DNA from: Savitreella phatthalungensis | Taxonomy: Eukaryota | Direction of reading: 5' to 3' | NCBI GenBank assembly: GCA_051599415.1 | Contig: AP039689.1 | Span: 434,001-498,000 of the forward strand | DNA: 64,000 nucleotides | Position numbers and translations under genes: made by a program | The notes under the pieces: model-generated | Database searches by the model: none | What the model saw: the letters and a program-made list of their open reading frames with translations, nothing else | Told to the model about the DNA's origin: nothing | In this document: positions 15,543-47,128 of the stretch, piece by piece | Numbering within the stretch: position 1 is the first letter of the stretch | Layout: the number at the start of each line of letters is the position of its first letter

Positions 15543-18029
15543 CTACAGCATCACTAGACCGTTGAAGGTCGACCGTAATTCTTGCCAATCGACCGATTTG
15601 ACGCTGCCGCCACGTTTGATCTCGTCCCGCTGAGCGCGGACGCTTGTCATGACGACGGCGGCCGCGCGCTTCCAGCTTGGTTCATTCGCGGCACATTTGT
15701 TGAGCAGGGAGCCGAGACCTTGACGGAGCGACAAATCCGGAGACGTGAGGGCTGCGAGAATCACAGCGGCAAGTGTGCCACGCCGTAGAGAGCCCTTCCT
15801 GTCCCGGACTGCTTTGTTGAAAATACGCGCAATGACGAGAGATGAAGTGTTCAGTGCCTCTTGGGGAACCACAGAACCTGGCATCAACACCTCGCACAGC
15901 AGACGCGTCATGTGGTAATTGCAGACGATCCAATGAGCTGTCGGCACGGCTCCGATCCAGCGGTTTAGGAAGATTTCGTCAATCTGCTCCTTCATCAGCT
16001 CGTCGACAATCTTTGGTCGATGTGCCCAAGCCTCCTCGACTTCGGCATAAATGCGTTGTAATTCTGCCTCAAAGACCTTACGGTCCGGTGAGGTGGGTGA
16101 AGTCGGCGATAAGGGGGAGGTCAAAGGCGCGAGCCCGCTTGCCAGCTTCGACAACTGAGCCTGCGCAGTCATGCATTTCAGTAGCACATGGAACATCGGG
16201 GAGATGACAGTGTGCTCTATTCGCTCGTCCTCCGTCTTTTTCACGAAAGGATACATATTGCCTTGGCCTGGAGTCGGCAACAGCTCGTGCTCGATTAGGT
16301 AGAGCATTACAGAGGACGTTCCGCCGAAGAAACCGCTGTTGATCGACAGGACGGCGTTGGCCCACGTAAGCCATATACCACCTTCGAAAATACGTCCGGC
16401 CTGGGCACGAGCCTCGACAGCGCGCATGGCTGGTGCAAAGTCGATTTGTTGCAGATTCTTCGCACGCGTCAGGTTCACAAAATAGCAAGTAGCGAGAGCT
16501 GCCGTGGACTGTCGCCACTTGGCGTCCTCGAGCTGCTCTATTAGCATCCTGGTCGCCACATCAGTATGCATCTCGGCTTGACCGAGTGCCTTCGTGCTGT
16601 CGACCGTCGGGTGATTCTGGACGTTGTAATGCAGATCAGTCGCTGCGTAGGCCAATACAGCGTGTAACATCGCAGCATCGTCTGAACACAGTGTCGTGAG
16701 TAGCTGTCTGAAGGGGTTATTAAACCCTCGGTCAGGATAATTGAGCTGTCCAGCAAGAACTGCAAAGAAATGCTTCATGTAGTGTTCATCTCCATCTTGA
16801 GCTTGCGGAAGCATTTTCAGGGTGGCAAGCACACTGGACGGCACTTGAGCATAGGCCTCAGCGCTCTCGTGAAGCTCATCGAAGGGGTCACTCAATGCAG
16901 ACGAAGCAGATGGCGAGCGACCGCCCGGAGAGCCGATAGGATGACCCTGATAATGGCCGAACGGCTCGAACGAGGGCGAGATTGCGCTGAGTTGACCCGG
17001 ACTCGAAATGGCTGAGGAAAAGCCTCCCCGAGAACTTCCTGGAGAGGTAGCATAAAGAGAAGCGCTAGGCAGAGACAAGAAATTGCTGCCTCCAATGCCT
17101 CCAGAAGTTGTGCCACTACCGTTGTGCTGATGACCACTATCGAGCCCGAAGGTATTGATGACGATCTGTGGTTTTTGAAGGGGTAGATCAGTGCGGGAGC
17201 TCGTATAGTCGCCGAGAGATGATCCGCCTGCGATACTTGGCGCGTATCCACCATTGCCAGATGGACCTCCGTATGAAGAGCCGTAGTTGGTCGACCATCC
17301 TGGTGATCTGCCGCCAGAGGGCGACGCTGACCCCGGGGCAGGTAAATTGATGCTGAAGTTCGGCGAGTGCGGAGGCGCATGGTGTCCGAGTCCCGAAGAA
17401 ACGTTGGAGCCGGCCACACCTGGGACATTCAGATTAGCTCCGAATGACGGACGCTGCGTCCCGAGAGAGGGTCGATGAGGATTGCTGTGACTCATGCTCG
17501 GTGTGCGAGAATGAATCACAGGAGGCGGCGGCGAGCTTGATGCATAACTGTTCGTATCGAGCAGCTCGTTGTCGATATCGAGCTCTTTGTTGGTCTCAAA
17601 GTAATTTGTGGTATACGTTTTGAATCTGATCGATGAGTTTGACAAAGACCGAGAACGCCTGTAAGCAGCGGGAGTCGATCTGTCATAGACATTGCAGCCT
17701 GCCACATCGGTATATGCCTCCATACGAGAGATTACTCGAGGCGTGTCATCCCGGAAGGTGATACGCGAGTGATATCCAGCGCATTTTAGACCTAGTCGAT
17801 TGCACGTGTGACAAGTAGGCCTGTTCTCATCACATTTGACCTTGCGCTCCCGACATGTCCAGCAGCCAGACTTAGTCCTCGGAGCTTTGCGTCCTCCAGA
17901 TGCTGCACGATCGCTAGTTGGCGTGATCGGTCTGCCCTGATCGCTGCGGTCGTCCCCGCTGTCTGAAATAGACGTCGTGGAGCCAGCTCTGTGAGAGGTC
18001 GTTGGGACTTGAAGCAAATCGTTGGACAT
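15543..18029 (-). CDS. Zn(II)2Cys6 transcription factor with C-terminal fungal TF domain
   Basis: GCWTCRERKVKCDENRPTCHTCNRLGLKC, a Ser/Gly-rich linker, and an NPFRQLL...LHAVLAYAA regulatory region. Confidence 0.9.
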   Translation of the reverse strand: MSNDLLQVPTTSHRAGSTTSISDSGDDRSDQGRPITPTSDRAASGGRKAPRTKSGCWTCRERKVKCDENRPTCHTCNRLGLKCAGYHSRITFRDDTPRVISRMEAYTDVAGCNVYDRSTPAAYRRSRSLSNSSIRFKTYTTNYFETNKELDIDNELLDTNSYASSSPPPPVIHSRTPSMSHSNPHRPSLGTQRPSFGANLNVPGVAGSNVSSGLGHHAPPHSPNFSINLPAPGSASPSGGRSPGWSTNYGSSYGGPSGNGGYAPSIAGGSSLGDYTSSRTDLPLQKPQIVINTFGLDSGHQHNGSGTTSGGIGGSNFLSLPSASLYATSPGSSRGGFSSAISSPGQLSAISPSFEPFGHYQGHPIGSPGGRSPSASSALSDPFDELHESAEAYAQVPSSVLATLKMLPQAQDGDEHYMKHFFAVLAGQLNYPDRGFNNPFRQLLTTLCSDDAAMLHAVLAYAATDLHYNVQNHPTVDSTKALGQAEMHTDVATRMLIEQLEDAKWRQSTAALATCYFVNLTRAKNLQQIDFAPAMRAVEARAQAGRIFEGGIWLTWANAVLSINSGFFGGTSSVMLYLIEHELLPTPGQGNMYPFVKKTEDERIEHTVISPMFHVLLKCMTAQAQLSKLASGLAPLTSPLSPTSPTSPDRKVFEAELQRIYAEVEEAWAHRPKIVDELMKEQIDEIFLNRWIGAVPTAHWIVCNYHMTRLLCEVLMPGSVVPQEALNTSSLVIARIFNKAVRDRKGSLRRGTLAAVILAALTSPDLSLRQGLGSLLNKCAANEPSWKRAAAVVMTSVRAQRDEIKRGGSVKSVDWQELRSTFNGLVML

Positions 18030-20598
18030 GTCTGCTCAAACTTGCGCAGTAGTATGAGAAGAGTCAGGATGTAGGACACTTCCGCGAGGACCGAAAGATC
18101 GGCGAGGCGGTATTGTCGCGCTGGTCTCAAAACACGCGAGTCTTTCGGAACGTGTCGATTCCAAAACCGGTGTAAACAACAACTCGATTGAGGTGAAACC
18201 TAGTGGTCGGCTGTGCTTGCGCGATTGCGACAAGCGATGACTGACGATCGCTGACGTGAGCGATGTATGATGTATCTCCAGACTAATGGGATTTAGGCTG
18301 GATGTGCGCGTGGCAAAGACTTCGCGATGCGGCGCGCCGAGGAACGAGCCACGATGTTGTCAGCGATGTCTGCGACTGTCCGTCGTTTAGCGTATAGCCG
18401 ATCCGAGAGCGCGTGGCGTCACAAGCGCGATGAGACTTCGACTGCTTGAGGGTCGGATCTTATCGGCACTTTGAATTTGTCCGAGACTCCGAGCACACCC
18501 TCGAAGCCTGTCTGGAAGAGAGTCGTTCCGGGTGACTGGGCAGAGTGATGTAAAGTGCAGTGCAGTCTGCGCGTGGTGAGACAATGCAGTGTATCTGCAG
18601 GTGATCGAGCCGGAAAAGCTATGTTCGGGCTGGATTTGACGTCGGCAAATACTTTCTAGGCCTCAACGCGCGTCTCTAGTCATGCCTTGGGTGCGACACT
18701 GCGCGCACTTTCACAACCAAGTGTGCTTGTGGCGAGGCTAAGCTCTCAAGGCGAGAACGACAATCTATGTATGTATGCGACAGCTCGGCGCTTCTTCGAA
18801 CGCGGTCAAACTGGACTCCAGATCTTCTCAGGGGACCCCTAGCAATTGAAGGTGGAGCCAGAGATGCGGTTCGAGGGACGCTAGAGACAAGGACAGGTGA
18901 AACTGGTCCAAATGAGCGAGCACCTTCACAAAGTTCTGCAGGCCAAGGATACCTGAGGCAGCGTAAGCCCAAGCGTCCGAAGCAATTTCATTGCCTTAGC
19001 CACTAGCCCGAACGGTCAAATCGTTCACGATTGAATAGCTGCTACAGCGAGATCTGATTTGACGACATTCTAATTTCTCTCATCTCTAGGACGTCTGGGA
19101 TATCTGCATATGTCAATGGCAATTCGGATCCACTCAAGCGCTGTCGTGCTTGCCAGCTTCCCGTCATACCGATAGCATTCAAGGAAGAAAGGTAGTGACG
19201 GTCGATCTAAGTACCCGGCTGGACGACAAACCTGAACATTCCGGCAGAGGTAGCAGCTCTGAGAAGCGATTGGAAGTGGTCAAACCGGAATTGACTGCGG
19301 ACGTGTCTCTTACGGCTCCCACCGCATAGTCTCGTCTAATCCTCTTAGTCTCGGTGCCATGGCATTCAGTACGGCCACGTACCGAGCAATCTAGCTCAGG
19401 ATACTGAGCACTTCCAGAGAGCCAATATTCTAGTGGCCCTCGTGCTGGTTGGGCAGGTCTAGTATGCTGTGCTTCATCTCTGTAGATGGAGCTAGCTTAT
19501 TTTGAGGAATTTTCACCCTTGTCCAGATACAGTCATTGGAGGAGTTCTGCTGCGCCTCGTCGCCTTAGATTCCTCGACTCGCCAATTTAGCTTTGACTTT
19601 TAGTGCGGACTTGATTTAAGCTCATCCGCATGTACAATTTCACCCGACTGCGAAGCACACAGAGCAAACAGAGCAGACGACGAATCACCCGCTCGGCTCA
19701 AAGTGAATCACGCGCAAATCTACAGACTCTAGATCCAGAGCACGGTTGATCGCTAGGCCTATGCCGACACTACGTAAATGCAAGTCAGTCGGAGTTCATA
19801 TGCACAGTCAACTCCATATGCTCGAGGTTCGGCTAGAGAAATAGGAGAATTGCAATCGGTGTAGGTCTTAGTCCGGGCTCCTATGTTTGTCGACATTGCA
19901 TACGTACGGGTCTGACTAACCAGTTTCGTGTCCAACTAAACCAGTTCATTTCAGCCGCTTTAGCAGCGACGCCTGCAACAAACTACTTTGGGTCAGGGGG
20001 TGCGATGGGTCTTGCCAGACTGTAAGTCTGCTCTGCAAAGTCGGGACGCATTGAATGAATGATCGAGAATAGAACTGCAAGCGAAAACGTCCCTTGACCC
20101 GATAGCTGTTTCGCTTCAACATCACACCAGCAACATGCTGGGAAAGCGAATGACGACATCGTGAATTCAGATAGCTCGTGCATACTTGTACATTTTGGCT
20201 TTCGCTCATGCTGATGATGCAGCTAGCTATTGTGAGCTTACAATGGGCTTTGAGCAATTGACTGTCCAGGCGAAATCTCTGATAGCATGCTTGATTTTGA
20301 CAACGAGCCCGACTTTGTTGTGAGATTAGTCCCCATCTTGTGGAATTAACGACTGCCAGCGCGAATGGGTCTTACGTTTGATGTCTATGTGTGGTCCGGC
20401 TTCTTCTGACAGAAAGACTATGTAACCCATGAGAGATGACTCATACAGCCTCACCCAGCTAAACAGCCGAGCTTTCCAACAACAGAAACACTGACTGGTG
20501 TTGTGTCGGCAATAACCGTGTCTTCTGGCATAACATCGGCGGCGCACTGCTAATAGAAGAGGCTGGCGAGATGAAGCATACGTCAGCCGGCGTAGGAT

Positions 20599-21260
20599 CT
20601 AGAGCTCTTTTTTCGTTTCCGCATCACGACGCGACTCTGCATTAGATGCACGACCAAAAACGGTCTCTTCCAGCTTGTCGAAAACAGTGTCGACAACGGA
20701 TTCGACTGGGTGGTCGAATAGGTATGGCAATGCTGGCACGACGGACAAGCCCAAACCTGTAGGGCCCCACGTCTTAAGCTTTGGATTTTTGACATTGGTG
20801 AATAGGCGGTCGCTCTGCTTGACAACCGTATGAATGGTAAATGCGGGCAGAGCCATGGTGGCAATGGCCTGAAAGACGGATCTGCGCGCGGCCAGTAAGC
20901 CTACACTGGTGTTGTCTTCACCCCTGATCACTTTCGCTTTGTAACCTTCGTATCCAACATCACCAGCCAGATAGAGCCAAGATATGGCATAGCCGGCGGT
21001 CACAACTTTTGACGAGACCACCGGCCGGAAGGATTCGCCAATATCAGATGTATACCCAACATAACGCAGGTTTTTGAGGAAAAGTGCCTTTGTCCGTGAA
21101 AGATAACCAAGGTCTGCTGGTCAGTTTCTTCTCTTCAGACATATGGATACGACATCTTACATCTCAGGGATGTATCAGTGCTATCCACTTGTCCATCTGC
21201 GACTCGCTCGACGACGTCCTCAGCCGCCTCTTTGACTTTCTCAATCGGTCCGGACGACAT
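20599..21260 (-). CDS. MTFP1: Mitochondrial fission process protein 1 (MTP18/MTFP1); exons 21260-21161 and 21113-20599
   Basis: Intron 21114-21160 (GTAAGA...AACTGAC...CAG) joins DSTDTSLRY-LGYLSR to RYVGYTSDIGESFRP, FQAIATMALPAFTIH and LPYLFDHPVE. Confidence 0.88.
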
Positions 21261-22116
21261 AGTGTTAGGATGCGCTTGGATTGGCGTTTGAGGGGGGCCG
21301 GCGAGACGATAGTTAAACAATAGGTTCGTCTTTGCTGAGCTGGGAGCGCCGCAAAGAATACCTGCACTTTCTCCTTACAGGACCGCTCAAATGTTCCGCT
21401 TCAGAGTAGACCTTCTACTTGGTTGCTTTGTTCCGTCAAGATACCCGTCCGGAGAAGATGCGCGTGTGCCAGCACCAATATACCACCACGATTTGGAACA
21501 AGATCGAGTGCAACGTGAACCAGAACGTCATTTTGAAGTCCGCCACGAGTCACATGCCGGCTGTGTGGATCGAGGCTGTGCAATTTCATATTCTCATGTC
21601 TGGACTGAAATCGGTCTAACTGAACCAGACATGTCTACGAAAGGGTGCCAATCCCTACAGCCTGTATATAGTCAATTATAAATTCACTCAGAGAGCTCTG
21701 CTGATTTCCAAGATAGTTCGAGTCCACTTGTATGTATAGCCTTATTGCAGGTCAAGTGCATATAGCTTTGGTTGAATTAGAAGGGAATTTGATAGTATTT
21801 ACTGTGTAACTTAACTTTGGTTATTGAATTCCTGACGCAGCACTGTAAATTCATGCGTGAATTTGCCGACCACGATCATCATCATTCTGCTGACGATGTT
21901 GATTGCGGGGGCACTGTATACACTCATATATTGGATCCTTCTTGCATTTCTTGCAAATCCACCTAGCTAGACGATCAATGACAACATCCAGTCCTGTACA
22001 TCTGATCGATACAGAAGAACGGACAGGCCCGACGATCTGATCTCAGGTGATCCAGTCGCAGAACTCAATCGTCAGAGTAGGCTTCCTGCCGCTCACTGCT
22101 CCACAGCTGTTCACGC

Positions 22117-22362
22117 ATGGCAAAATCCGGCATACAGAAGGAAGTCTTATCTCTCTACAGAGCGTCCCTGCGAGCGATTCGTCGGAAACCAGAAGATACT
22201 CATCACCACTGGTACTTGTTCGTGCGCGAGCAGTATGATGCGCATCGGACGCTACGAAAAAAGGATTTTGCGACGATAGAGTATCATCTCCGGATGGGTT
22301 GGCGGAAATTGGACATGTACGGAGCCGATGGTGTACGAGATATTCATGTCGACAGCACATAG
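22117..22362 (+). CDS. SDH6: Succinate dehydrogenase assembly factor 1 (LYR protein)
   Basis: SGIQKEVLSLYR (LYR motif) and KKDFATIEYHLRMG. Confidence 0.85.
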   Translation: MAKSGIQKEVLSLYRASLRAIRRKPEDTHHHWYLFVREQYDAHRTLRKKDFATIEYHLRMGWRKLDMYGADGVRDIHVDST

Positions 22363-22501
22363 CCTCACTTTGGCAAAATCGCCATTGTACGACAGTCAAT
22401 GTACGGTGTAAATATGGAGACCACACGGACTATCACAGCGCAATGAGAACATGCTAAGCCGTGGAGCAACATGCATGAGATTACGTAATTGTACGCGTCT
22501 T

Positions 22502-24556
22502 TCAAGTATGATGACTGCGCTCAGTGGAACAGCATGATGCCTTGGCCGCTGTTGGGACGTGAAGCGTTGATTTGTTGTATGCTTGGTTGCTGCGAGGAGC
22601 GTCGATGGCAGGGTTCTGCGAGAAAAATCCTGAAGGCTTGAGGGATATCTGAGTAATCTCGCAAGGCATGACAGGGAAATCTTCAGGTCGTGGATTGTGC
22701 GTCAGGCCAAAGACATACCATAGGACGATGTCTTGACCTTCAGTATCTTGTTCGCGCTCTATCCATCGACCCAAGTCATCCGAAGTATCGCCGCGGGATT
22801 GATTCGTGAATTCGCCCGCCGGATATAGCTCATCGTCATTGTGGCGAGTCACCCACAGAGCGTGCTTCGCGAAATTCGCTCGTTTCCAGTTATACGACCG
22901 TGGTTTCATGAGAAGCATTTGAGAAGACGGCCCGTGTATCTTGTACGCGACCGGCTTGCCAGATATCGGGTTCAGCACCGACGCATTTTGAACTTTGAAG
23001 ACCCGGCCCACTTCCGGCGCATTGTCCACAAAGCCCTCCCGAATGATCCTGGTCTCCTGTGCAGTATAACCGATACCGAACGGATTGAGCATATCGTCTA
23101 TTGGTAGTGCGACTGAATCTTCATATGTCGCCGTGTTGCAATGACCGTCAATCGCAGGGTCGATGCGCAAGCAGAATATATGCTGGTGATACGGGGCAGC
23201 CACTCCAGGCCCGACCCGGGTGGCCCATGGTTGGGAGACGCCGTCGGCGATCGGAGTCGTGGCAAGAATACCTGTTGCCCGCGTTTCAATATGAATAGCG
23301 CCGGCCAAATCGAGAACGAAAGCGAGCTCGTACTCGTAGTTGGCTACTGTCGCCACACACTGTAGCCGAAGCTCACGATTCCGCACGATACTTGCCGTGT
23401 CTGTGCGATAGTTTGTATGCTTCCACAGAGTACCGTTGTCCTGCTCGTGTATACAAACGACATTGCGGGCGTGAATCGGCTCACCACGCCCATCGATCAT
23501 GTCTGCGGACAAGTAGGCGATTGTACCCAGACAGTCACATCCCAGCGCCAATCGATTGGCGCTAAGGCCAAAGCCACAGTCGCCTAGATCGAAAGCTTGC
23601 CGGCGCGAGTTTGGCGCTCGTGGATCTCCGTATGGTACCGTCATCTCAGCGAGAGAGATCCTGTAGAAAGTGTCACGACCGTCATAGCGGACATTGTGTA
23701 AAACAGGGCCCTCTCGTGCGTTGAAGGAGATGCGAAAGTCCCACTTCTGCCACTGTAGATGATGACCGTCCAGTTGAAATGATACCCCGTCAGGCTGGGA
23801 AATGTGTAGTGGCTTGAGCACGGGGCGCTTCGACATCAGGCCAGGTGGCAAAAGGTCTGCTGCATACTCGACAGGTTCACGAACCTGCCAGGGCTGAGAC
23901 TCTTGGACCGTCGTGTGGTCGCTCCCGGTGGCAACGCGGTCGATGCGCACAAGCATCTTTGTCCGGGCGTCAAACACCGGCGAGAAATCGAGTGGTAACG
24001 AATAGAAGTTTTGCTCTGGATGTTCGCCTTTCGTAACATACATGTATGCTTGCCAAAGCCACCTGTGACCTTCTTCTGTGTCATCTGTCCCATACATCCA
24101 AGGATCAACGATTACACGGTGCCCTGCCGGAAGCTGCAAGGCTTCGATCTCTTTTTGGACGGTTTGGTCGGCAAGCACGACCTTCTCGATATCGTTCATC
24201 TCGTCGACGTCGATTGGCGGGACCATGGACGGGAAAGTATCACATCGGATGACTGCCAGTTCAGTCAAACTCACGATGGCTTTGTGCACGAGTTGCTCAT
24301 TCCCTGCGAGGTAGATAGCAAAGGCTTCTCGCACAGGCGGGGCCGGACGCTCGCTTCCCGTCCTTTCAGCTTCGAGCCATGGCAAGAAAGAGGTCTTTGC
24401 AGGCTCCTTTAGGGTGACATTCTTGAAGTAGAGCCGCCTTGTAATGGAGCTATGATGCTTGCGAAGAATAGCGACCACGGTACGCATTTCCGCGGCAGAC
24501 AGTGGGTCCAACGGATGACCAGATTGGCCAATATGCGCTGGCTCAGGGGAATCCAT
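22502..24556 (-). CDS. Copper amine oxidase (TPQ-dependent); start probably MDSPEPAH at 24556, with upstream in-frame ATGs to 24685
   Basis: HPLDPLS, AFDLGD (catalytic Asp), LGCDCLG, TVANYEY (TPQ precursor), copper ligands HQH and THNPRPEDFPVMP. Confidence 0.95.
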   Translation of the reverse strand: MDSPEPAHIGQSGHPLDPLSAAEMRTVVAILRKHHSSITRRLYFKNVTLKEPAKTSFLPWLEAERTGSERPAPPVREAFAIYLAGNEQLVHKAIVSLTELAVIRCDTFPSMVPPIDVDEMNDIEKVVLADQTVQKEIEALQLPAGHRVIVDPWMYGTDDTEEGHRWLWQAYMYVTKGEHPEQNFYSLPLDFSPVFDARTKMLVRIDRVATGSDHTTVQESQPWQVREPVEYAADLLPPGLMSKRPVLKPLHISQPDGVSFQLDGHHLQWQKWDFRISFNAREGPVLHNVRYDGRDTFYRISLAEMTVPYGDPRAPNSRRQAFDLGDCGFGLSANRLALGCDCLGTIAYLSADMIDGRGEPIHARNVVCIHEQDNGTLWKHTNYRTDTASIVRNRELRLQCVATVANYEYELAFVLDLAGAIHIETRATGILATTPIADGVSQPWATRVGPGVAAPYHQHIFCLRIDPAIDGHCNTATYEDSVALPIDDMLNPFGIGYTAQETRIIREGFVDNAPEVGRVFKVQNASVLNPISGKPVAYKIHGPSSQMLLMKPRSYNWKRANFAKHALWVTRHNDDELYPAGEFTNQSRGDTSDDLGRWIEREQDTEGQDIVLWYVFGLTHNPRPEDFPVMPCEITQISLKPSGFFSQNPAIDAPRSNQAYNKSTLHVPTAAKASCCSTERSHHT

Positions 24557-25435
24557 GATTGAAGTCGTGGCTGGTACTGAAGATGCTTTGATAGTCAGCA
24601 GACTCGACCTTGCGCGACTTGTGTGACTGTAAGTTGGCGATTCAGACATAAGGTGACACGTATTCGAGACTGCAGCGACGGCCATGGTGAATGCCTATCA
24701 GAGACGTTTCGAGTCAACCCTGTGAAAGTCTATGGGCGGTGTGCTGCTTATATTCCGGTCCTTAATCGGATGTACTTGAGCATAGTGCATGAAGCGCCGG
24801 ACTGACGAATATGGGTCACTGCAACACGGACCACCGTGCCCTGGTGATGACAGCATTCCGACTAGGACATATCGCCGCCGGAGGGATGTACTGCACTGCA
24901 CTGCTCGAGCATAGAGCTGAAGCCAATAATCTGGCCAGTCTGACCAGCTCAGCGGACCCACCGATTTCCCTCGACGACTCGATACCAGTCGTGCCGTGCT
25001 TAGCGACCTGATCAATGATATGAGGTTGTGGGGAACATCCGGCAGATCTTATCTCTTGCCCAATCGGGAACCCTACGGTTGATCTCTAAAATCCAACTGA
25101 TCAATAGTTTAAATTATGAGGTTGCACGGATCACGGTATGGTGTGTGAGCGCGACTATGGCGTCCATAAGCTAGGTGACGCGATGTGACCCGGATGTATG
25201 CAGCACGTCAGCGATTCCTTGCAGATCAAACGTTGTCGCTAGAGAGGCTACTGACTGTTGGCTTCCCATCACGTACTGCTGTAGATTGTCCTCCGCTCGA
25301 ATCGCTTGTATGAAATAGCCCAGGACAAGGATACAAGTGCGATAGATTGTTTCTAATAGCGAGGCTGCTTGTGAAGGACACACGACAGGGTAGTCAAATT
25401 AGCGTTTTGAAACGTTTGTGTCGCGGTATCTTCAT

Positions 25436-26890
25436 TCAGGCCAGATTGACTTCCCATTCAAACAATGCGAGAATCTGCTGCCAATTGGTAATGCGCTGGA
25501 ACCACACCGTTTCCAGGACCTCGATCGCGCGGTCGACGTTGCCGAGGCCAAAGCTGTGCAGTTGCTCCAAACACCTTCGGAGATAATTTCGGTCAGCTTC
25601 GGCGCGTATCTCGCAGCCAAAAGTAAAGAGGGTAAATAGAAGGGAGGAGTCAATGTCGTCATCCCCGCCCGGGCCGGCCGATCGACGAATGTGGTCGACA
25701 CCGCGTTCCAGAGCAGTTTCGACCTCAATTGAGTCAGCCTCAAGTCCCTCAACTCGTCGGTATAGATGTATCAGACTTGCGTAAACATATGCATCATGGC
25801 AATGTGAGTGTTGCCGGGCGAGGAGAGGATCAGTGATGTATTGCTTGACCGGCATATTGCCGAGCCGCTTGCAGAGCTTCGTTTCCAGTGTCGCAGCGTC
25901 CTCCTTTAATTCAGCAACTAGACGTAAATCGGGCGCCGATGTGGTAAAAAGCAACTCCCGCCGTTCTGCTAATTGCCCAATCTCCATGCTCAGCGGGACG
26001 ACGTCGAGTATGTAGCCCATATATGGGTCAAGGGAATATTCACTGAAAGATTCACCAGCATCACCATCGGTCCAGTAGCTGCCGCTCGCGAGCGGCTGGA
26101 ATTTACGTGTGGCCGTCAATGAGCCAGAGATGTCAAAGTAGGCCAACCATTTGATGAGGAAGCGGAAAATTGGCGAGTCGTGCTCACCTCGTGGACCGCC
26201 CATGCACCAGACCAAGCGTTTAGCTCCATCAAAATGCACTGTCCACGAGCTACTAGAAGCTCTCTTTCTAGCAACGACCTCGTAGTCACACAGTGCTACC
26301 ACAGTTGCAAGCGTCTTGATCGATGGCGCCTGTGTATCTCGCATGGTCGCGAGCTCTTGTGAGACTTGCGTTATGGCGTAGTTGATCAACGTGGTCAGAA
26401 GCTCCATTTGAGGCGGCTGACCTCTGAGCGCGCAGTAGTTCTCCAATGAAGCGGCCAGCAGCACAGAAAGCAAGGAATCGGAGTGAACAGCGAAGGGTCC
26501 GAGGATTGTGATGATCGGATTGACTGCGCTGTTGCCGTGTGGCGTGTGTAGAATAGCGAGAGTGCCGAGATAGTGATGCCACAGCATGCGCAATTGCTCA
26601 TTCTCAAGCAACTTCGAAGAGCCCGGGGTCAGTCTGATGGCTGAGTTGATTGAGGACTCGGCAACTCCAAAGTCAATTTCTGTAACGTCATCCTCCAGTC
26701 CTTCGCTATTCCGGAAAGCCTTTGGATTGGGCTGTTGCTGAGCCGTGGGTACACAGGGACATCCAGCTTGCTTGCAGTGAGCACACGGTAATTGATCCGC
26801 ACACTTCAACCTCTTGATCTTGCATCGCTGGCAGACTGCTCGTACTCGTTTGACCGGAGGCCCGAGTAATGGATTTCGTCGACGGGGCAT
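25436..26890 (-). CDS. Zn(II)2Cys6 transcription factor; probable start MPRRRNP at 26890
   Basis: CQRCKIKRLKCADQLPCAHCKQAGCPC, with WTVHFDGA, WLAYFDI and LFTFGCE segments of the fungal TF regulatory domain. Confidence 0.88.
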   Translation of the reverse strand: MPRRRNPLLGPPVKRVRAVCQRCKIKRLKCADQLPCAHCKQAGCPCVPTAQQQPNPKAFRNSEGLEDDVTEIDFGVAESSINSAIRLTPGSSKLLENEQLRMLWHHYLGTLAILHTPHGNSAVNPIITILGPFAVHSDSLLSVLLAASLENYCALRGQPPQMELLTTLINYAITQVSQELATMRDTQAPSIKTLATVVALCDYEVVARKRASSSSWTVHFDGAKRLVWCMGGPRGEHDSPIFRFLIKWLAYFDISGSLTATRKFQPLASGSYWTDGDAGESFSEYSLDPYMGYILDVVPLSMEIGQLAERRELLFTTSAPDLRLVAELKEDAATLETKLCKRLGNMPVKQYITDPLLARQHSHCHDAYVYASLIHLYRRVEGLEADSIEVETALERGVDHIRRSAGPGGDDDIDSSLLFTLFTFGCEIRAEADRNYLRRCLEQLHSFGLGNVDRAIEVLETVWFQRITNWQQILALFEWEVNLA

Positions 26891-27472
26891 TGCATCACCA
26901 TTTGTGCGTGATCTTGTAGTACAAACTACACAGGTGATGTCAGAGCTACATGCTTTTCTGCCATCTTCGACATTTTGGAGGAATAGGCGAGGACGACAGT
27001 TGGGTGCTCGACATGGATAGAAGGGACATGCACATCTCCGCAGTCGATACACCATGCATGAAGTGCCTGGACTCAATGCAAGCTGCCATTCTGATGATCA
27101 AGCTGGAAGAAAGGTCGCGGTACGGAGTTATCATTGGAACACGGGTAGATGACCAATCAAAGACGTGGTATAATCATGGTCAGATACAGTGAAGGTCAAA
27201 ATGATGACAGAACGATTCCCGAGAAGGCAATCTCGCCGAATCAAACTATCTTTTAAGGTAGGTCAACTTGCCGCAGATTGTGATTGTGACAATCGTTCAT
27301 GGGATTCTGTCCGGTTCGAACACGACCAATTACCTGAGCTGATATCTCAGCTCAGTAGCTTCATGCGGATATGCTTTGCCAGTCAATCAAATGATCGGGT
27401 ATGTCACCAAGTCGGTATTCTACTGCCTGGACCTTTGCCTGGCCGACTTACAAGATCTGGTCATCAATAGGA

Positions 27473-27512
27473 CAGCGGTGCTCTATAGGACATGCAGCGG
27501 TGCTCTATAGGA
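27473..27512. repeat. 18-bp direct repeat CAGCGGTGCTCTATAGGA x2
   Basis: Identical copies at 27473-27490 and 27495-27512. Confidence 0.9.
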
Positions 27513-27890
27513 AGTAGCAGTGATGCCTGCAGAAGCTCACTGTCCCAACTACACGGCCAGTAAGTTCCTGATGCTATACAGAGTTTGCAATTGCATTTGT
27601 TCTCCTCCTTATACTAAAATGCCATGCATTGAATGGCTGTCCCAAATCCGTTTTCATTTGACGGGTACATCCGACACACGGACATCGTCAAGCTTCTACG
27701 CGCAGCTTTAGGTCATCAATCAAGAACAGTCGGAATACACGTTAGACCACACAATATGTGATGCTAACGCCATCCTGTTGAATGCCGGGTAGTCTGTAAT
27801 CTACTGAAGGCCATTGAATTCACTCCTTTGAATGAGAAGAATCTAGTCAGCAAGTCTTGTCTCGATGCGAATCTCAAAGGTTGTCGATTG

Positions 27891-28622
27891 TTATCAATGA
27901 GACTGAATACCAAATCAAGTGTATGGATAAAGGAAATGGACGGAGATTAGGTGGAATTTGCCCAATTGATAAGATAAATGAAACTTGATCAATCCGCTCT
28001 TTCTGGCTCAAACGCCTCGGCGAAGTCGTATATCATCCTTGTCAAAGTGCCCACAGGTGTCCATAGGTGCCCGCAGGTGCCCGCAGGTGAGCCACAGGTT
28101 TTCAGGTGTCCGAATCTTCAGGTATCCAAATACCTCATCCAACCACAGGCATACATACCTATCAGGAGATCTCCACAAAATCTTGGCTCTCCCAAATCTT
28201 TGAGATAAGGTTTTTGTTCAACCGATCAAACATGTCTCAAATTTCTTAATTCCGGCCACACGACCAGGCCCCACTCCCACCCAGCGCACGCGATATAGAA
28301 TCTTGCCTTGACAGTTCCTCATTTGCTGGTGTGTGAAAAGACAGAAATTCTGTCGTATTGTTCTTGAAGTGACTAGCCAAGAAAGCCCTGTGACAGAGAT
28401 CACATAATCCCAAGTTCATGCAGTCTCTCAGGACTCGGGAACTACTACGACTGTGATCCGCAGGCTGGATTAACAGATCTACGATTGTCCCGTTGAGGTA
28501 AGCGAGCGCAGATACAATCTCGAAAGGTACATCCGGAGCTCGCTTCATATCACCCTTGCTGATCCCCCACACTTCGATCAGTGCCATCTCAATTCGCGCT
28601 CATCAAACGATCTTGTCGATAA
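27891..28622. promoter_or_regulatory. GATA (HGATAA) sites in the divergent TF/permease intergenic region
   Basis: TTATCA 27891, tandem TGATAAGATAA 27967-27977, AGATAA 28203 and CGATAA 28617. Function is inferred. Confidence 0.4.
28047..28110. repeat. Degenerate ~10-bp tandem repeat (CAGGTGCCCR)
   Basis: gtgcccacaggtgtccataggtgcccgcaggtgcccgcaggtgagccacaggttttcaggtgtcc. Confidence 0.75.
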
Positions 28623-28694
28623 GCCGACTGCTAAGACCGATCTAAGTTCTACCACGTTTAAAAGAGGAAGAAATTCCTCGCTCGGCTCGTGACG

Positions 28695-30491
28695 ATGGTC
28701 GACCGCGATACTGGTAGTCGACCACCAACCACCATCAATTTCGAGCTCAAAGACAGGTCGAAGACCACCTCTACAATGGCTACACCGATGACCGGCGAAG
28801 ATCTGACGCGCATCACGTCCACGAAGAAGTCTGTTATGGGCTCTCCGTCGATGGACGTCGAGACAGGTGAGACCTGCACGTTACACGACAGCGATGCTTT
28901 GAATCGCATGGGCTACTCACAGGAGTTGACACGCAAGTTCAGCTTCCTCTCGATGTTGTGTCTGGCGTTTTCAATTCTGGGGACGTGGCCTACATTGGCT
29001 CAGTCCATGGGCGCAGCGCTCTCCCAAGGTGGATCGATCACAATTCTTTGGGGGCTCATCCTCGTATTTCTCTGTAACTTGTGCATAACCTCCTCTTTAG
29101 GCGAACTCGCCAGTGCCTTTCCAACCTCGCTTGGCCAGGCCTTTTACGTGGCTCAGATCCTGCCACGCGACAGCTTATCTGCCCGCTTTCTCTCTTACCT
29201 CACCGCCTGGATCAACACAGCTGGCTGGATCGCCCTCAATGCTAGCCAAACAGCCTTCATGACCTCCTTTCTGATCGGGATGAAGCTGCTGTTTGATGAG
29301 GACTGGTCCGGCGCAAGTAAAGGCTGGATCAGTTTCCTGGTCTATCTGGGCTTAACAGCTGCAGGCACCCTTTTTAACATTGTTATTTGCAAGCGCGACT
29401 CGCACTTGCCTTTATTCAATAAGCTCATCACAGCACAGAACCTCGTGCTTCTGTTTGTTTTCTCCCTCGGCTTGTTGGTCGCCACAGGTGTTCGACAGGA
29501 CACACACTTCCGATCCGGCCGGTTTGTCTTTGGCAATTGGAGTAACACCGGCGGCTGGCCAGATGGTGTTGCGTTCTTACTAGGCCTCGTACAGGCCGGG
29601 TTCGGGCTCACGGCGTTCGATTCTGTGATCCACCTGATAGAGGAAATCCCCGATCCTCAACGGACAGCACCTCGCATCTTGAATCTTTCCGTTGTGATTG
29701 GAACCCTCACAGGCTTCTTCTTCATGGTGGTCTGCCTTTTCTGCTTGCAATCCGAGGACAACGTTCAGAATTCGGCCACTGGACTGCCCTTCATGCAGTT
29801 GTGTAAAGATGCTATGGGCTTGGTTCTGAGTGCAGCCTTACTCGCCAATTACATTGTTAACGGGATTTTCCAGGCATTTGTCATCGCCACAACTTCTTCT
29901 CGACTGACCTGGTCATTTGCACGCGATGGTGGCTTTCCCTACGCTGCCTACTTCTCTCGCGTCGATCCATATTGGCTGGTGCCTGTGCGCGCCACGCTGC
30001 TTCAGGGCGTCATTGTTGGGCTTATCGGGATATTATATCTGTGCAGCAACCAGACGCTGACCGCCATTCTGTCTGTTTCTACCATCGCCCTCACTATATC
30101 ATATGCTTTGCCGCCTGCATGCCTTCTTGTCGTCGGTAGGCGCGTCCTTCGCCTTCAGAAAGGACCCTATTACCTCGGCGACGGATTCTTGGGCTATCTG
30201 ACGAACATCGTCACTGTCATCTATTGTGCTATCACCACTGTTTTCTTCTTCTTTCCAAGCTCGCCTAATCCAGCGGCGGCCGATATGAACTACGCTATCG
30301 CGGTCTTCGCCGTTGTCTGCATGTTGGCGGCCGTTTTCTGGGTCTTTGTCGGCCGCAAGCGTTTTCTGAAGGAAACGCACTCGCTTGCTTCTTTCCTCAC
30401 CACCTCCACCAGCGGTCAACATCTTCCCAGTGCAGACACGCTTGGGTGTGAAGAGCGCGGCGTCTCACGGCACGGCGGTGTTTCACTATGA
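28695..30491 (+). CDS. APC-superfamily amino acid/choline/amine permease (Hnm1/Uga4-like)
   Basis: MGYSQELTRKFSFLSM, LGELASAFPT, FDSVIHLIEE, SRLTWSFARDGGFP and MNYAIAV, with about 12 hydrophobic segments. Confidence 0.92.
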   Translation: MVDRDTGSRPPTTINFELKDRSKTTSTMATPMTGEDLTRITSTKKSVMGSPSMDVETGETCTLHDSDALNRMGYSQELTRKFSFLSMLCLAFSILGTWPTLAQSMGAALSQGGSITILWGLILVFLCNLCITSSLGELASAFPTSLGQAFYVAQILPRDSLSARFLSYLTAWINTAGWIALNASQTAFMTSFLIGMKLLFDEDWSGASKGWISFLVYLGLTAAGTLFNIVICKRDSHLPLFNKLITAQNLVLLFVFSLGLLVATGVRQDTHFRSGRFVFGNWSNTGGWPDGVAFLLGLVQAGFGLTAFDSVIHLIEEIPDPQRTAPRILNLSVVIGTLTGFFFMVVCLFCLQSEDNVQNSATGLPFMQLCKDAMGLVLSAALLANYIVNGIFQAFVIATTSSRLTWSFARDGGFPYAAYFSRVDPYWLVPVRATLLQGVIVGLIGILYLCSNQTLTAILSVSTIALTISYALPPACLLVVGRRVLRLQKGPYYLGDGFLGYLTNIVTVIYCAITTVFFFFPSSPNPAAADMNYAIAVFAVVCMLAAVFWVFVGRKRFLKETHSLASFLTTSTSGQHLPSADTLGCEERGVSRHGGVSL

Positions 30492-30633
30492 CGAAAACTT
30501 CGTCCCTTCATCGGAATGTCGGCATGCTAGAATGGAATTGTAACTTATAAATACATTGATTGAACGCCGGAGCGCATGTTCTGCGAAGCACACAGCTAGG
30601 TTTATCAGATTACGCCGCCAAACAAAGGGTGTT

Positions 30634-32781
30634 TCATGCGAACGCCTCTGGAGGGATCCCATTCCGAGCACGCAATTCTTCCGTCGTACGAACCGAGGCC
30701 TCCAAGTCAAAGTTCATCTGTTCCAGACACAGGGCTGCATAGTTTTCGTTCAAGCCTGTCCGCTGCCGAAGCTGCTGTAGAAGGCTCTGTTTGGTGGCCA
30801 AGTCCGGGCCATCAGCCGGTCGAGTAGTATTGAGAACGCCATTAATTTGAGGCGCAATAGCCGCATTGGCTGGTACCGATGGATTCGATGCACCAGCTGT
30901 ACCGGGCTCGCTTACTCGCCAAGCGTCACTTCCGCCCCAGGCCCGTAAGAGAAGCATGTCCGACTTGATCTCGACTCCACCATCGATAGCAGGTCCAAGG
31001 ACAAATGTCCTGTCGAATGATCTCCGGGTTTCCTGTTTGTTGACGCGTTCGCTGAACTCTCCATGAACGTTGACTTGTATCAGGGGCGCTCCGGCAGAGG
31101 TCTGAAATGTGAAGGCATCGACACAGAAGAGCGACGCATCCGTGAGATCGTGGCGTGTCGCAGGCAGGTGTTTCAGAGCCTGTATAATCTGCCGGCGCCC
31201 GATATTTGTGCGCGCTATACGCGCATCAATCTGAGTAATGCGTGTGAGATTACGTGACGTGCCGATATACGCCTGCCAGCTGCTGCCGGTGAATGCACCG
31301 CCTGTCTTTTTACGGGGCGCGGTGACATTGAGTGACATCGTAAAGACGCCAGTCTCAGCATAGACCGACTCAAGCTTTGAGCGGTCGCCAGAGTCATAGG
31401 CCATGAAAAAGCGTCCGAGAAAGTCATTGACGGTGGACTGAACACTTTCGTTCTCGTAGAATTCGCGTCTTATAGGAATCTGCAGCTTCGCGGACTTCTC
31501 AGCAGCCGCGACCTCCTCATCCGGCACTCCAAACGAAATGCCCTGAGATACAGCCACGCCGTCAAGCAGCTTTAGCGACGGGAATCGTTTCGTGATCTCG
31601 CTGCGATACTCCACTTCTCGACCTTTCGCAATGTCGTCCTCACGCACGGCATTACCCACGAGAATGAGTTCAGAAAGAGATGCGAGCTTAGTCTTCGCTG
31701 CCCATGCATCGAGATCCCTGTAACGTCGCAGCTCGTTGTGCGCAAGACTAAGATTGCGCAATTTCGGATACGTCTGCGCCAGTGAAGATATTCCGGAGAC
31801 GTCCTTGATTCTGTTGCCCTCCAAGTTTATCGATACCACGTCTAATTTGTCGTCTTGCAGCACCTTCATGAGTGCAGGAAACATCTTCGATGAAGCTGAC
31901 GTATTTGCCTCGAGCCCAATACTCTTGAGAATGGGATCATCTGTCATGCGTGATAGGTCAAGCATCCGTGTCTCTGGCTGGTAGCGCGTCGCCAGGAACT
32001 GTTTTAGCGTATCTATAGTGCTCTCCTTCGCAGCCGTGCGGCCACCGGTAGAGCCGCCACGAGAGGTTGTGCCAGCCATTGAGATATCGCTGTCGCCACG
32101 GGCTTGCGAGATCCGTAGCACGTCACCCGCAAACTTCAAACCGCTGTTCTTCTCAAGAATTTTCGCGTCCTGTGGCGAGAAGACCGCTACAAGGGTCGTT
32201 CCGCCTGTATTGCGGACATTGGTTACTTTGATATGGAGCTTGCGCCAGATGAATGACACAAGGTCTTCTGCACTACCTCCCGAGGCGCCTGTAATCTAAA
32301 ATCGTGTCAGTTGAGGTGGTTCGATGTCCTGCGACTTGCCGCATTCGTCGCCCGCGAGGCCAGACGGAGTGAGAAATTCTGTGTGCACACATACGGCCTT
32401 CAGACATCCTTTCCAGGGTAGGGAGAAGCAGTCAAGGCATAGTGGTGAAAACTGAATCATCGCCGAATATCATCTCGGGCGGGAAGAAGCTGAACAAGAC
32501 CAGGGTCATAGCGTTGGGGAATCTTAGCATACGGTCATATCGATCTGGGTGGCGCGCGTCGAAGCCTGATCGACGTTGGTACCACGTCGACGACTACGCG
32601 AGCCTTTTGAAGCTGCTCCAGCAGCACCTGCACCATATGGGTTGAATCTTGCCGGTCCGGAAGGTATTGAATCGCCCGTCATGTCAATGTCACCATCCCT
32701 ATTCGTGCGATTGGAGGTGCCTACAGAGCCGAGACTCGCATGCCCTCTGCGGCCTGCGCGGCCGCGCCTTGCAGCTGACAT
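30634..32781 (-). CDS. MEX67: mRNA export factor Mex67 (NXF1/TAP); exons 32781-32533 and 32295-30634
   Basis: RG-rich N-terminus, LRR (INLEGNRI, LRNLSLAHN), NTF2-like domain (VHGEF...RSFDRTFVL) and TAP-C/UBA (TGLNENYAALCLEQMNFDLE...IPPEAF). Phase-0 intron GTATGC...AACTGAC...TAG. Confidence 0.93.
32389..32470 (-). ncRNA. Candidate intronic box C/D snoRNA-like or structured RNA inside the MEX67 intron
   Basis: C-like box GATGATT (32461-32455), D box CTGA (32403-32400), and closing stem ATATTCGGC/GCCGTATGT. No target identified. Confidence 0.35.
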
Positions 32782-33247
32782 TGAGGGGCGACAGCAGGGC
32801 ACACAATATACTGAAGTATCCGAGCAGAGCGCGCGTCTGATTGTCTAGGTGCCTGTCCTTATGATGCACACGCAAATCGTCACGTGACCATATATAATGG
32901 ACGGTGTACATGCACTGCTTGTTGACAAATGTGCATCTTTAGAGCCAAACACTATGTTAAGCTGCTTGTGGCAGTGTGTTGATCCACCCCTATCACATAT
33001 CTAGCTGCGTTTTTCGTGATAGACTATCGGGTCTACATCGAAGTCCGGCCGAGGCAGGTTCGTATCGAATCATCTCGACAGCAGCGACATCGGCAGACAC
33101 AGCTACCTCGAGAGGCAGGAATTGTCGAACCTCTACGGTCGCCACGATAGCGCAGCGCACCTTCAAGAATGAAGTTCGAGGTGCAGGTGGCAGGGATTAC
33201 ACTCTGCAATTTACAGCCAAGCTACCAGCTTGTCGGAACGCGGCGCC

Positions 33248-34456
33248 TCAGGTAGCCAAATTGGCACGCTGTGCTTCCAAAGATGCCAAAAATCTTTGCC
33301 TCTCGTCTAGATGTGCTGTCAGCATGTCGATCTGATTCCTGAATACCTCAATATCATCCCGAACAGACTTCAGGCCACTCTCACCGCCTGTACCTTGCCG
33401 TCCAGGGACGACGTCAAGGCGCTCCAGTTCAGCTTTCTTGAACTCCAGTAGTTGCTCAAGCTCACGACGGACGACCCCCTGTGTCGTCTGGCGATCAGAA
33501 TCTAGGGTCTTTGTGTTGGACGATTGCTCCGCTCTCGCGATTTGTGTATCCAAGTCGGCTAGCTCACGTTTTAACCGCACGACTTCCCAATCTCCATCTT
33601 TTATGTCGCCAGCGTCATAGAGAGGTTTTGTAGCATCTAGCCCGGAGCGGGATACGCCGAGTTTGTCGAGATAGTCTCCTCCAAACCTTTTCCCCTTGTC
33701 CTCGCTCGTATTCGAAGCATTGCCTCGCAATTGACCATTGCGGTCATACTTACTCGTGTTGTAGTCAATCTCAGATTTCTGGAAAGTTGCACGAAGGCTT
33801 GCAGGAACGTTTCGCGGGATCCTGTAACCTTGATGGCGTTGATTCAGACAATGGAGGAAGGCCAACAACTGATCTTTCCCGACAGAATCCTGCAGCTTGG
33901 GATTGACCAGCTTCCAGGCACGATCGATGTCTCCAGGAGGCACGCTCAATGATCCGTAAAGCTCTTGTAGCCTGTCGAACTTGACTCCGCCTCGTCGATC
34001 GACATTGGCAGCAAAGATGGATTCGTAATTACGGCGATCTGCTGGAGACATATACCAGTCAAATCCTTCCTTCAGTCCTTCCGCGCGTGCTCCATAGTCC
34101 GGGGATTCTGGTCGCTCGAGATCTAGACCTTGCTCGATCGCATTATTTGCGAGAAGCAGATGCGATTTTGAGGCAGGGACAAGGTGGTCTGGCAAGCTTT
34201 TGGGCAGAACTGATCGCTTCCCACTGAGAACGTCGAAAACGAGTCGCATACTGACGCAAAATTCTTCAAAATCCAGCCGGCCGTCATTATCAATGTCGGC
34301 AAGGTCCCACACTTGCTCGAGTTGCTCCTCTGCTAGACCGGAGTTGCTGAGGACGGCGACCGCTTGCTCACCAGACAGAAATCCATCGGTCGGGCTGAGA
34401 CCAGAGAATATTTCCCAGTATTTTCGCTGCTCTTCTGCAGTGATCTCGTCCGTCAT
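33248..34456 (-). CDS. END3: EH-domain endocytosis protein End3
   Basis: KYWEIFSGL...VWDLADIDNDGRLDFEEFC, a second EH domain, VPASLRATF, and a DWEVVRLKRELADL coiled coil. Confidence 0.93.
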   Translation of the reverse strand: MTDEITAEEQRKYWEIFSGLSPTDGFLSGEQAVAVLSNSGLAEEQLEQVWDLADIDNDGRLDFEEFCVSMRLVFDVLSGKRSVLPKSLPDHLVPASKSHLLLANNAIEQGLDLERPESPDYGARAEGLKEGFDWYMSPADRRNYESIFAANVDRRGGVKFDRLQELYGSLSVPPGDIDRAWKLVNPKLQDSVGKDQLLAFLHCLNQRHQGYRIPRNVPASLRATFQKSEIDYNTSKYDRNGQLRGNASNTSEDKGKRFGGDYLDKLGVSRSGLDATKPLYDAGDIKDGDWEVVRLKRELADLDTQIARAEQSSNTKTLDSDRQTTQGVVRRELEQLLEFKKAELERLDVVPGRQGTGGESGLKSVRDDIEVFRNQIDMLTAHLDERQRFLASLEAQRANLAT

Positions 34457-46723: not shown

Positions 46724-47128
46724 TCAAAAGTCAGTGACACGACCACCGAATGAGTAATCGCCGTGTCTAAGCGGATCGTTCTTTGGACCGCCGACCTCGC
46801 CTGTGACTGGGTTGCGATCGCCTTCAAATTCCGGCTGCGGCTTTCGACGAACGTCTGGATGGAAGTAGACTTGCTGAGAACGCTCTTCTGCAGATTTCTG
46901 TAACTTGCGCCACTCAGCCTGATCTTCCTTGGGCAGTGACGGAGGTGCCGGTGCCGGAGGTTGGAAGTCGGTCTTGGCCTGAGGAGCACGTGAGGGCACC
47001 GTTGAGCCTGGGGTGGCAGGTCTTGTAGAAATGCTACGCACGATGATGGGGTTGATCGGCGAGTCGAAGAGTGCGCGAGTGTTTCTCATAAGCCAGAACG
47101 ATGCTGTGAGTTTAGAAGGACGGCTCAT
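46724..47128 (-). CDS. SDH8: Succinate dehydrogenase assembly factor 4 (DUF1674)
   Basis: C-terminal EFEGDRNPVTGEVGGPKNDPLRHGDYSFGGRVTDF and a basic presequence. Confidence 0.9.
   Translation of the reverse strand: MSRPSKLTASFWLMRNTRALFDSPINPIIVRSISTRPATPGSTVPSRAPQAKTDFQPPAPAPPSLPKEDQAEWRKLQKSAEERSQQVYFHPDVRRKPQPEFEGDRNPVTGEVGGPKNDPLRHGDYSFGGRVTDF

Follow-up and report, generated by a model that had tools for sequence, protein, structure and literature searches.

Within a 64,000-nucleotide stretch of the Savitreella phatthalungensis genome (contig AP039689.1, positions 434,001 to 498,000; hereafter the window), we examined three consecutive genes encoding a copper amine oxidase (CAO), a Zn2Cys6 transcription factor (TF) and an APC-superfamily permease. 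A first-pass annotation, made from the letters alone, had named these three products and described their genes as intronless, with the permease divergently transcribed. Each of these points holds. Pfam bears out the three identities (Table 1); each protein aligns in one frame from end to end with relatives, with the solved structure 3LOY or with a Pfam profile; and the TF and permease genes stand head to head on opposite strands, the CAO gene following downstream of the TF on the same strand. Comparison with relatives suggests that oxidase and regulator form a conserved pair with a looser permease partner, and on balance we read the locus as a small cluster for amine catabolism.

Read from their first ATG, the CAO and TF open reading frames (ORFs) would span 22502–24685 (minus strand, 727 codons) and 25436–27055 (minus strand, 539 codons). 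By sequence comparison, the true starts are placed not at these ATGs (24685 and 27055) but at about 24556 and 26890. For CAO this follows from the annotated window protein of 684 amino acids; for the TF, because the annotated protein has 484 amino acids and all eight relatives with an N-terminus present begin with MPR(K/R)RR, aligned to window Met56.

Table 1. Genes, intergenic regions and boundaries of the locus (positions in the window)
Feature	Position	Strand	Length	Details
LYR-family protein gene, left boundary outside the module	22117..22362	+	81 aa	PF05347, 2.5e-12
Copper amine oxidase (CAO) gene	22502..24556	-	684 aa	single exon; PF01179/PF02727/PF02728; annotated protein 684 aa
Region upstream of CAO, between TF stop and CAO start	24557..25435		879 bp	presumed CAO promoter
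Zn2Cys6 transcription factor (TF) gene	25436..26890	-	484 aa	single exon; PF00172 and PF11951
Divergent intergenic region, common to TF and permease	26891..28694		1,804 bp
Perfect 18-nt direct repeat with CGG triplet, candidate cis-element	27473..27512	+		two copies, period 22 nt
APC-superfamily permease gene, amino acid/choline transporter (ACT) type	28695..30491	+	598 aa	single exon; PF13520/PF00324; annotated protein 598 aa
Mex67/NXF-type mRNA export factor gene, right boundary outside the module	30634..32295	-		RRM_9, LRR_NXF1-5, NXF_NTF2, TAP_C

Oxidase, regulator and permease

The oxidase, assigned to the copper (TPQ) amine oxidases (EC 1.4.3.21), matches PF01179 in a single stretch over the complete profile (1–407 of 407, E 2.9e-153), and its N2 and N3 domains are recognised by PF02727 (9.2e-14) and PF02728 (8.4e-10); against the primary-amine oxidase model NF008559 it scores 596 bits, under the cutoff of 651. 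Alignment to solved structures finds the catalytic residues intact, with Asp323 as the base and Tyr407, within N406-Y407-E408-Y409, as the precursor of topaquinone (TPQ), and likewise the copper ligands His457, His459 and His620. Tyr407 and Asp323 align with Y405 and D319 of the peroxisomal enzyme chain, as do the His-x-His pair and the third histidine with their counterparts. All 17 aligned CAOs, relatives included, conserve the base, the TPQ tyrosine motif and all three copper ligands, and by sequence the enzyme is predicted to be catalytically intact.

Among solved structures the best match is 3LOY (626 bits over residues 14–656), which we take to be Hansenula polymorpha HPAO-2, an oxidase preferring aromatic amines. 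Weaker matches were obtained to entries of the peroxisomal methylamine oxidase HPAO-1 (416–425 bits) and to Arthrobacter phenylethylamine oxidases (331–336 bits), and far weaker ones to diamine or lysyl oxidases (89–110 bits). By bit score, then, the window CAO is closer to 3LOY than to HPAO-1 or the bacterial phenylethylamine oxidases. The Lys42/Asp445 salt bridge cited in the available part of PMC3382800 can be placed on the 3LOY chain if the numbering is shifted by one. The same excerpt, in which the PDB code is absent, describes a preference of HPAO-2 for aromatic primary amines and of HPAO-1 for small aliphatic amines.

The C-terminus of the window CAO reads SHHT. Because this ending is without a tripeptide resembling the type 1 peroxisomal targeting signal (PTS1), the enzyme is likely cytosolic, and a peroxisomal location, which we considered, is not supported. 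PTS1-like ends occur in two named relatives, the CAOs of Dactylonectria and Myotisia, which finish in SKL or HKL; none is present in the window CAO or in the related sets A–D introduced below. A Cys-Cys dipeptide lies 0–9 residues from the C-terminus in 16 of the 17 aligned fungal CAOs, the exception being Sugiyamaella P0096.

The TF carries the fungal-specific middle domain PF11951 (3.2e-47) and the zinc-cluster domain PF00172, the latter at 7.8e-5 and 23.1 bits against a cutoff of 21. Its zinc-cluster motif, C75-x2-C78-x6-C85-x5-C91-x2-C94-x6-C101 (residue numbering of the ORF), conforms to the canonical CX2CX6CX5-12CX2CX6-8C pattern. These six cysteines are invariant in the eight relatives covering the region, to which the truncated homologue P0129 does not extend. 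At the C-terminal end, WEVNLA is invariant in all ten alignment rows. All eight full-length relatives have a longer variable linker joining zinc cluster and middle domain, of which some 70–80 residues are missing from the window TF (alignment columns about 100–240).

The permease matches PF13520 over positions 1–426 of 427 (7.3e-49). Its best NCBIfam model is TIGR00907, of the amino acid/choline transporter family (E 3.2e-109); the score of 366 bits lies under the cutoff of 598.3. By PF13520 it would share the APC fold with ACT permeases of the Hnm1/Uga4 kind. In Saccharomyces cerevisiae, Hnm1 transports choline and ethanolamine and Uga4 transports γ-aminobutyric acid (GABA) and putrescine, both in the ACT family (TC 2.A.3.4), and many homologues of the window permease are named 'choline transport protein' or 'Hnm1p' by their sources. 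In a 39-row tree, however, the window permease belongs to a 9-row subfamily (Shimodaira–Hasegawa-like approximate likelihood ratio test, SH-aLRT, 100) that stands apart from a 30-row clade containing the Sugiyamaella 'Hnm1p' (52% identical to the window permease) and the 'choline transport protein' labels. The earlier description 'Hnm1/Uga4-like' is therefore apt for the family only, given the TIGR00907 score and the separate subfamily, and the sequence would not qualify as an orthologue of a characterised choline or GABA transporter. Within the subfamily its partners are P0133 and P0134, at 64% identity.

Linkage in relatives

The nearest homologues of the window CAO form four 90% clusters at 61–62% identity; the best named fungi reach 52–54%. 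The related sequences come in four sets: A (contigs of 26905 and 13822 bp), B (contigs from ENA), C (contigs of 21–23 kb) and D (a contig of 8154 bp). In global alignments between the window and these relatives, identity is 61–62% for CAO, 45–49% for the TF and 55–56% for the permease.

Genes of the relatives were assigned to the same contig by exact contig size in bp and by source. Co-occurrence of the trio in other fungi, raised by the first-pass annotation, is indicated in this way: CAO and TF share eight contigs in the four related sets, and all three genes share three. The latter are contigs of 26,905, 18,492 and 14,186 bp; five more, of 13,822, 8,154, 21,464, 23,053 and 21,665 bp, carry CAO and TF with no permease match, and one of 7,279 bp carries TF and permease with no CAO match. 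Counted by protein, a TF orthologue is on the contig of eight of the 13 related CAOs, and a permease also for three of the 13, the five without a match being on contigs of 4.9–12.3 kb; among 18 related TF proteins, eight match a CAO contig and four a permease contig. Judged by these contig matches, the CAO–TF pair present in the window recurs in sets A, B, C and D, and the permease accompanies it in the window, A and B.

The trees agree with this picture. For CAO we used 61 rows, leaving out the fragments P0260 and P0261 and about 70 mostly Aspergillus/Penicillium rows; the window sequence and 11 sequences of sets A–D make up a 12-row clade (SH-aLRT 99) with the window as sister, separate from all named sequences. 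The path length from the window to A–D (0.85–0.88) exceeds the between-class distances of Pezizomycotina in the same tree. In the 18-row TF tree, too, the window sequence clusters with these sets, its branch being very long (1.69).

Close homologues of the TF are few, comprising only eight clusters at 41–48% local identity before a drop to 27%. Searched exhaustively with HMMER, 1.84 billion representatives yielded only two non-self matches at E<1e-70, both from the A–D group; the next matches are 33–35% identical and mostly much longer. Because this search found just A–D representatives, the TF orthogroup appears to be confined to lineages carrying this CAO clade. Adjacency of CAO and TF in one genome could be chance, Zn2Cys6 genes being common; the recurrence of the pairing on contigs of relatives is not.

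In named species, among the top matches, CAO and permease are on different contigs in Protomyces, Fusarium sarcochroum, Cylindrodendrum and Aspergillus taichungensis. The exception is Sugiyamaella, with both families on one 4.96-Mb chromosome.

More distant oxidases

A metagenome scan with the CAO as query yielded 16 loci with CAOs 31–49% identical to it. Of 249 ORFs in eight of these loci, Pfam annotation covered 99, all from six fungal-looking loci; all 90 ORFs of L010 and L012, which have dense overlaps and a high-GC bacterial look, and sixty shorter overlapping ORFs of the six were left out. In two loci, L001 and L002, a transporter gene of the major facilitator superfamily (MFS) lies directly downstream of CAO (L001:9198-13948, L002:10001-14703). 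Their CAOs are 45–49% identical to that of the window, and the two loci are related to each other (CAO about 88%, MFS 75–84% identical). Because they keep the CAO–MFS pair even though a 5-FTHF cyclo-ligase gene is found on opposite sides of CAO, the pairing of oxidase and transporter appears to recur with another transporter family. A Fungal_trans factor is encoded about 4 kb downstream in L001.

Other loci differ. A Rad51-family gene is directly upstream of CAO in L009, L015 and L007, whose CAO lineage is 40–47% identical to that of the window, and an ORF with a WLM domain is upstream in L015 and downstream in L009. The arrangement of these three loci suggests that synteny with housekeeping genes has been conserved, and the oxidase has no transporter as its immediate neighbour. 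In L005, only housekeeping genes are near CAO. With Mex67, LYR and End3 as queries, tblastn on the 16 loci (E 1e-5) gave no match; the only matches were those of CAO.

Promoters and surroundings

The region upstream of CAO and the divergent region contain no Pfam domain in their five and ten ORFs, respectively. A promoter motif common to the two was sought and set aside as evidence, two 10-mers being shared against a mean of 2.9 after shuffling. Of the paired CGG/CCG triplet arrangements (spacing 0–12 nt), eight occur upstream of CAO and none of them is common to the divergent promoter. The 18-nt direct repeat of the divergent region has its copies at 27473–27490 and 27495–27512, with a 4-nt spacer; it occurs nowhere else in the window, and two matches arose in none of 100 shuffles. 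Just upstream, its final 6 nt occur a third time. The repeat may have arisen as a simple microduplication, or it may serve the neighbouring Zn2Cys6 factor as a binding site. HGATAR sites number four upstream of CAO (4.6 per kb) and eight in the divergent region (4.4 per kb), against a mean of 2.66 per kb in the other intergenic regions, five of 20 of which reach at least 4.4 and a sixth 4.2. These promoter data neither support nor contradict co-regulation.

In composition the trio is unremarkable for its surroundings. Its GC (0.53–0.54), third-position GC (GC3, 0.57–0.63) and codon-usage distance (0.26–0.37) are inside the ranges of 17 neighbouring genes (0.51–0.58, 0.51–0.71 and 0.24–0.50), and it is flanked neither by repeats of more than 20 nt nor by mobile-element domains. 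Eight neighbours (14-3-3, DEAD-box helicase, End3, DGAT, peroxidase, LYR, HMG-box and C2H2) are plain ATG-to-stop ORFs identical to the annotated proteins. Seven of these eight are alone in their 90%-identity cluster, DGAT sharing its cluster only with a 51-aa fragment, and 14-3-3 has no relative at 90% identity or above among about 15 billion proteins. Since conserved neighbours too are singletons at 90%, the genome as a whole, not the trio alone, appears isolated in the databases, and the organism belongs to an ascomycete lineage that is very sparsely sampled and has few introns.

On both sides the trio lies tail to tail with its neighbours, at gaps of 139 bp (LYR side) and 142 bp (Mex67 side). 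The first-pass annotation had called these flanking genes SDH6 and MEX67. Mex67-type domains are present on the right; on the left, the LYR family is confirmed, all matching protein-atlas clusters being Complex1_LYR, and the specific name SDH6 is not. A DUF1674 ORF (46724–47128; PF07896, 1.2e-19) lies 24 kb from the LYR gene. We take DUF1674 to be the SDHAF4/Sdh8 family; if so, the window would hold two genes resembling succinate-dehydrogenase assembly factors, 24 kb apart.

According to Pfam, the other genes of the window are mostly housekeeping ones, among them an M16 peptidase, asparagine synthase, haem peroxidase, DGAT, MTP18, End3, a DEAD-box helicase, 14-3-3, a SNF2-RING protein, an eisosome protein and a RabGAP. 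None of the 69 window ORFs scanned has an aldehyde dehydrogenase domain; the first-pass annotation had noted that the cluster includes none, which would fit nitrogen-only use. The reading as a secondary-metabolite cluster is rejected, the window containing no polyketide synthase, non-ribosomal peptide synthetase, terpene synthase or tailoring enzyme. Among 40 intergenic or flanking ORFs scanned, 34 have no Pfam domain; of the other six, one overlaps a second Zn2Cys6 gene, three overlap MTP18 and one Mex67, and one has a weak OmdA match (E 0.004). Six further window ORFs gave DUF1674 and NTF2 matches.

The second Zn2Cys6 gene (15543–18029; 828 aa, PF00172 4e-10) is 4.5 kb to the left of the trio; MTP18 and the LYR gene intervene, and nothing ties it to the module. 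The 2.6 kb between it and MTP18 (18030–20601) hold no Pfam-recognisable ORF, Rfam family or tRNA. More widely, no Rfam family was detected in 18000–34000 and no tRNA in the window.

Discussion

In this study, we find a CAO, a Zn2Cys6 factor and an ACT-type permease side by side in a poorly sampled ascomycete, and we favour, with a little more confidence than doubt, the view that they form a small catabolic gene cluster through which a primary amine could serve as nitrogen source by uptake, deamination and regulation. The permease would import the protonated primary amine, and the probably cytosolic CAO would convert it to aldehyde, ammonium and hydrogen peroxide. The adjacent, lineage-specific Zn2Cys6 factor would switch on the oxidase and the divergent permease when the amine is present, with general nitrogen control probably acting on top. 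Co-regulation, transport direction, substrate and nitrogen use are each what we infer. As to the functional module put forward in the first-pass annotation, the oxidase and regulator fit it well, the pair recurring and the TF orthogroup being restricted; the permease lacks such stability. The conserved core would be the oxidase–regulator pair, and the permease a less stable, exchangeable partner.

This proposal accords with what is known of the enzyme family. The release of ammonium from primary amines by CAOs is described in the available parts of PMC3382800 and PMC5023269. The latter excerpt also reports that yeasts degrade a broad range of amines, which it attributes to amine oxidase activity and regards as probable nitrogen sources, and it refers to the role of methylamine oxidase in nitrogen assimilation as known from yeast physiology.

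For the substrate we would guess first at a monoamine of medium size, for instance phenylethylamine, tyramine, a benzylamine-like compound or a C2–C6 alkylamine, or possibly at ethanolamine; the guess is made only because of the similarity to 3LOY and of the transporter family. ACT transporters carry choline, ethanolamine and GABA-type amines, some members GABA and putrescine. A diamine, polyamine or omega-amino substrate of the putrescine, cadaverine or agmatine type, or else detoxification of biogenic amines derived from a host or growth substrate, with the aldehyde passed to unlinked enzymes, would agree with these members and with the lack of a linked aldehyde dehydrogenase. It would also agree with the acceptance of putrescine, cadaverine, agmatine and histamine within the CAO family (available part of PMC3382800) and with the broad panel of biogenic amines degraded by yeasts (excerpt of PMC5023269). 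We nevertheless consider this alternative improbable, as the closest structure is 3LOY, presumably the enzyme preferring aromatic monoamines, and the diamine and lysyl oxidases score far lower. Between detoxification and nitrogen use as such, the sequence does not separate.

A weightier alternative is that shared descent alone keeps the three genes together, as functionally independent neighbours linked through slow rearrangement: the permease would then be a choline/ethanolamine or other ACT importer in the service of lipid or general metabolism, the TF would regulate genes elsewhere, and the oxidase would be under general nitrogen regulators. A number of our observations lean this way and against a functional cluster. 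The assignment of genes to contigs by size and source does not show their order or spacing, and the A–D CAOs are 78–87% identical to each other, so that the linkage is evidenced in only two deep lineages, that of A–D and that of the window organism. The truncated TF homologue P0129 is on a 52,455-bp contig where no CAO was seen, and none of the 16 metagenome loci carries this TF or permease (tblastn, E 1e-5). The permease is the least settled of the three. None of its subfamily was seen on the three 21–23 kb contigs of set C; its closest partners, P0133 and P0134, lie on short contigs, none of which matches a contig of a CAO or TF; and the linked permeases of sets A and B belong to the other half of the subfamily, pairing with that of Protomyces lactucae-debilis and being 55–56% identical to the window's. 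This split may mean that the cluster uses different paralogues in the two lineages, or may mirror the species tree. In the promoters, no word of 11 nt or more is common to the CAO upstream region and the divergent region, the 18-nt repeat is absent upstream of CAO with its 9-nt core not enriched elsewhere, and the HGATAR density is mildly enriched and not distinctive. Zn2Cys6 genes, moreover, are frequent, as the second one in the window illustrates.

Against mere descent, the CAO–TF pairing persists where the two proteins have diverged to 61–62% and 45–49% identity, and the CAO tree puts the window at a distance from A–D at least as large as that between fungal classes. The TF orthogroup occurs just where the CAO clade occurs, both deep lineages have a linked permease drawn from a single 9-member subfamily, and another CAO lineage keeps a transporter neighbour through local rearrangement. 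On these grounds we regard independence of the three genes as rather unlikely. Much less credible still is the suggestion of the first-pass annotation that the genes were acquired as a block, here by insertion between the LYR gene and MEX67 through horizontal transfer from or to the A–D group. The trio does resemble an accessory island between housekeeping genes, with short 3′ gaps, and for each of its genes the nearest relatives are found in the A–D group, named fungi being at most 54% (CAO), 27% (TF) and 58% (permease) identical. However, its GC, GC3 and codon usage are native, flanking repeats and mobile-element domains are missing, and the eight conserved neighbours are equally isolated at 90% identity. 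All three trees place the window copies beside the A–D group, on long branches outside it, as expected for vertical descent, and a recent block acquisition is not supported by these sequence comparisons.

The preferred reading of the trio as a catabolic cluster can be taken one step further, though only tentatively, and we would not yet call this extension probable: the locus may be part of a lineage-restricted amine regulon not described before, in which a dedicated TF, its orthogroup confined to the vicinity of one clade of cytosolic HPAO-2-like CAOs, has stayed linked to the oxidase across class-level divergence and the transporter slot is filled by alternative paralogues of one ACT-permease subfamily. 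If this is true, fungal amine catabolism would repeatedly be built from an oxidase and an exchangeable importer, with an MFS transporter filling the slot in another CAO lineage.

Among known systems, the proline (prn) cluster of Aspergillus nidulans similarly combines an enzyme, a permease and a pathway-specific Zn2Cys6 factor. The nitrate cluster of H. polymorpha (YNR1/YNI1/YNT1/YNA1/YNA2), in the available part of PMC4559421, likewise brings enzyme, transporter and zinc-cluster activator together. The trio also has the divergent promoter between regulator and transporter found in fungal nutrient clusters; it differs from these in that its enzyme is a CAO catalysing a single step, its co-regulation is predicted only and its transporter partner varies. 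With the enzyme of PDB 3LOY, presumably HPAO-2, the window CAO agrees in its three-domain architecture, TPQ motif, copper histidines and catalytic aspartate, but it belongs to the separate 12-row clade and has a different C-terminal tail. HPAO-1 (PDB 2OOV, 3SX1) is of the same family and chemistry, but the match is weaker (424 bits) and the window CAO, with its SHHT end, is probably not peroxisomal. A full-text literature search found no description of a cluster of CAO, Zn2Cys6 factor and ACT permease. In its logic the proposed cluster resembles the classical fungal nutrient clusters.

Conclusion

The locus is probably a fairly ordinary nutrient-use cluster. The finding changes no general concept, and its practical value is modest, in amine-degrading enzymes for food or biocatalysis and in the nitrogen ecology of poorly sampled ascomycetes. 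Its exchangeable transporter slot illustrates how small catabolic clusters are assembled. To our knowledge, fungal CAOs have been well studied as enzymes, with their natural substrates, importers and regulators mostly unknown. A conserved oxidase–regulator pair, together with the permease linked to it, makes the system directly accessible to genetics, and the inducer of the Zn2Cys6 factor would probably reveal the physiological substrate of the oxidase.

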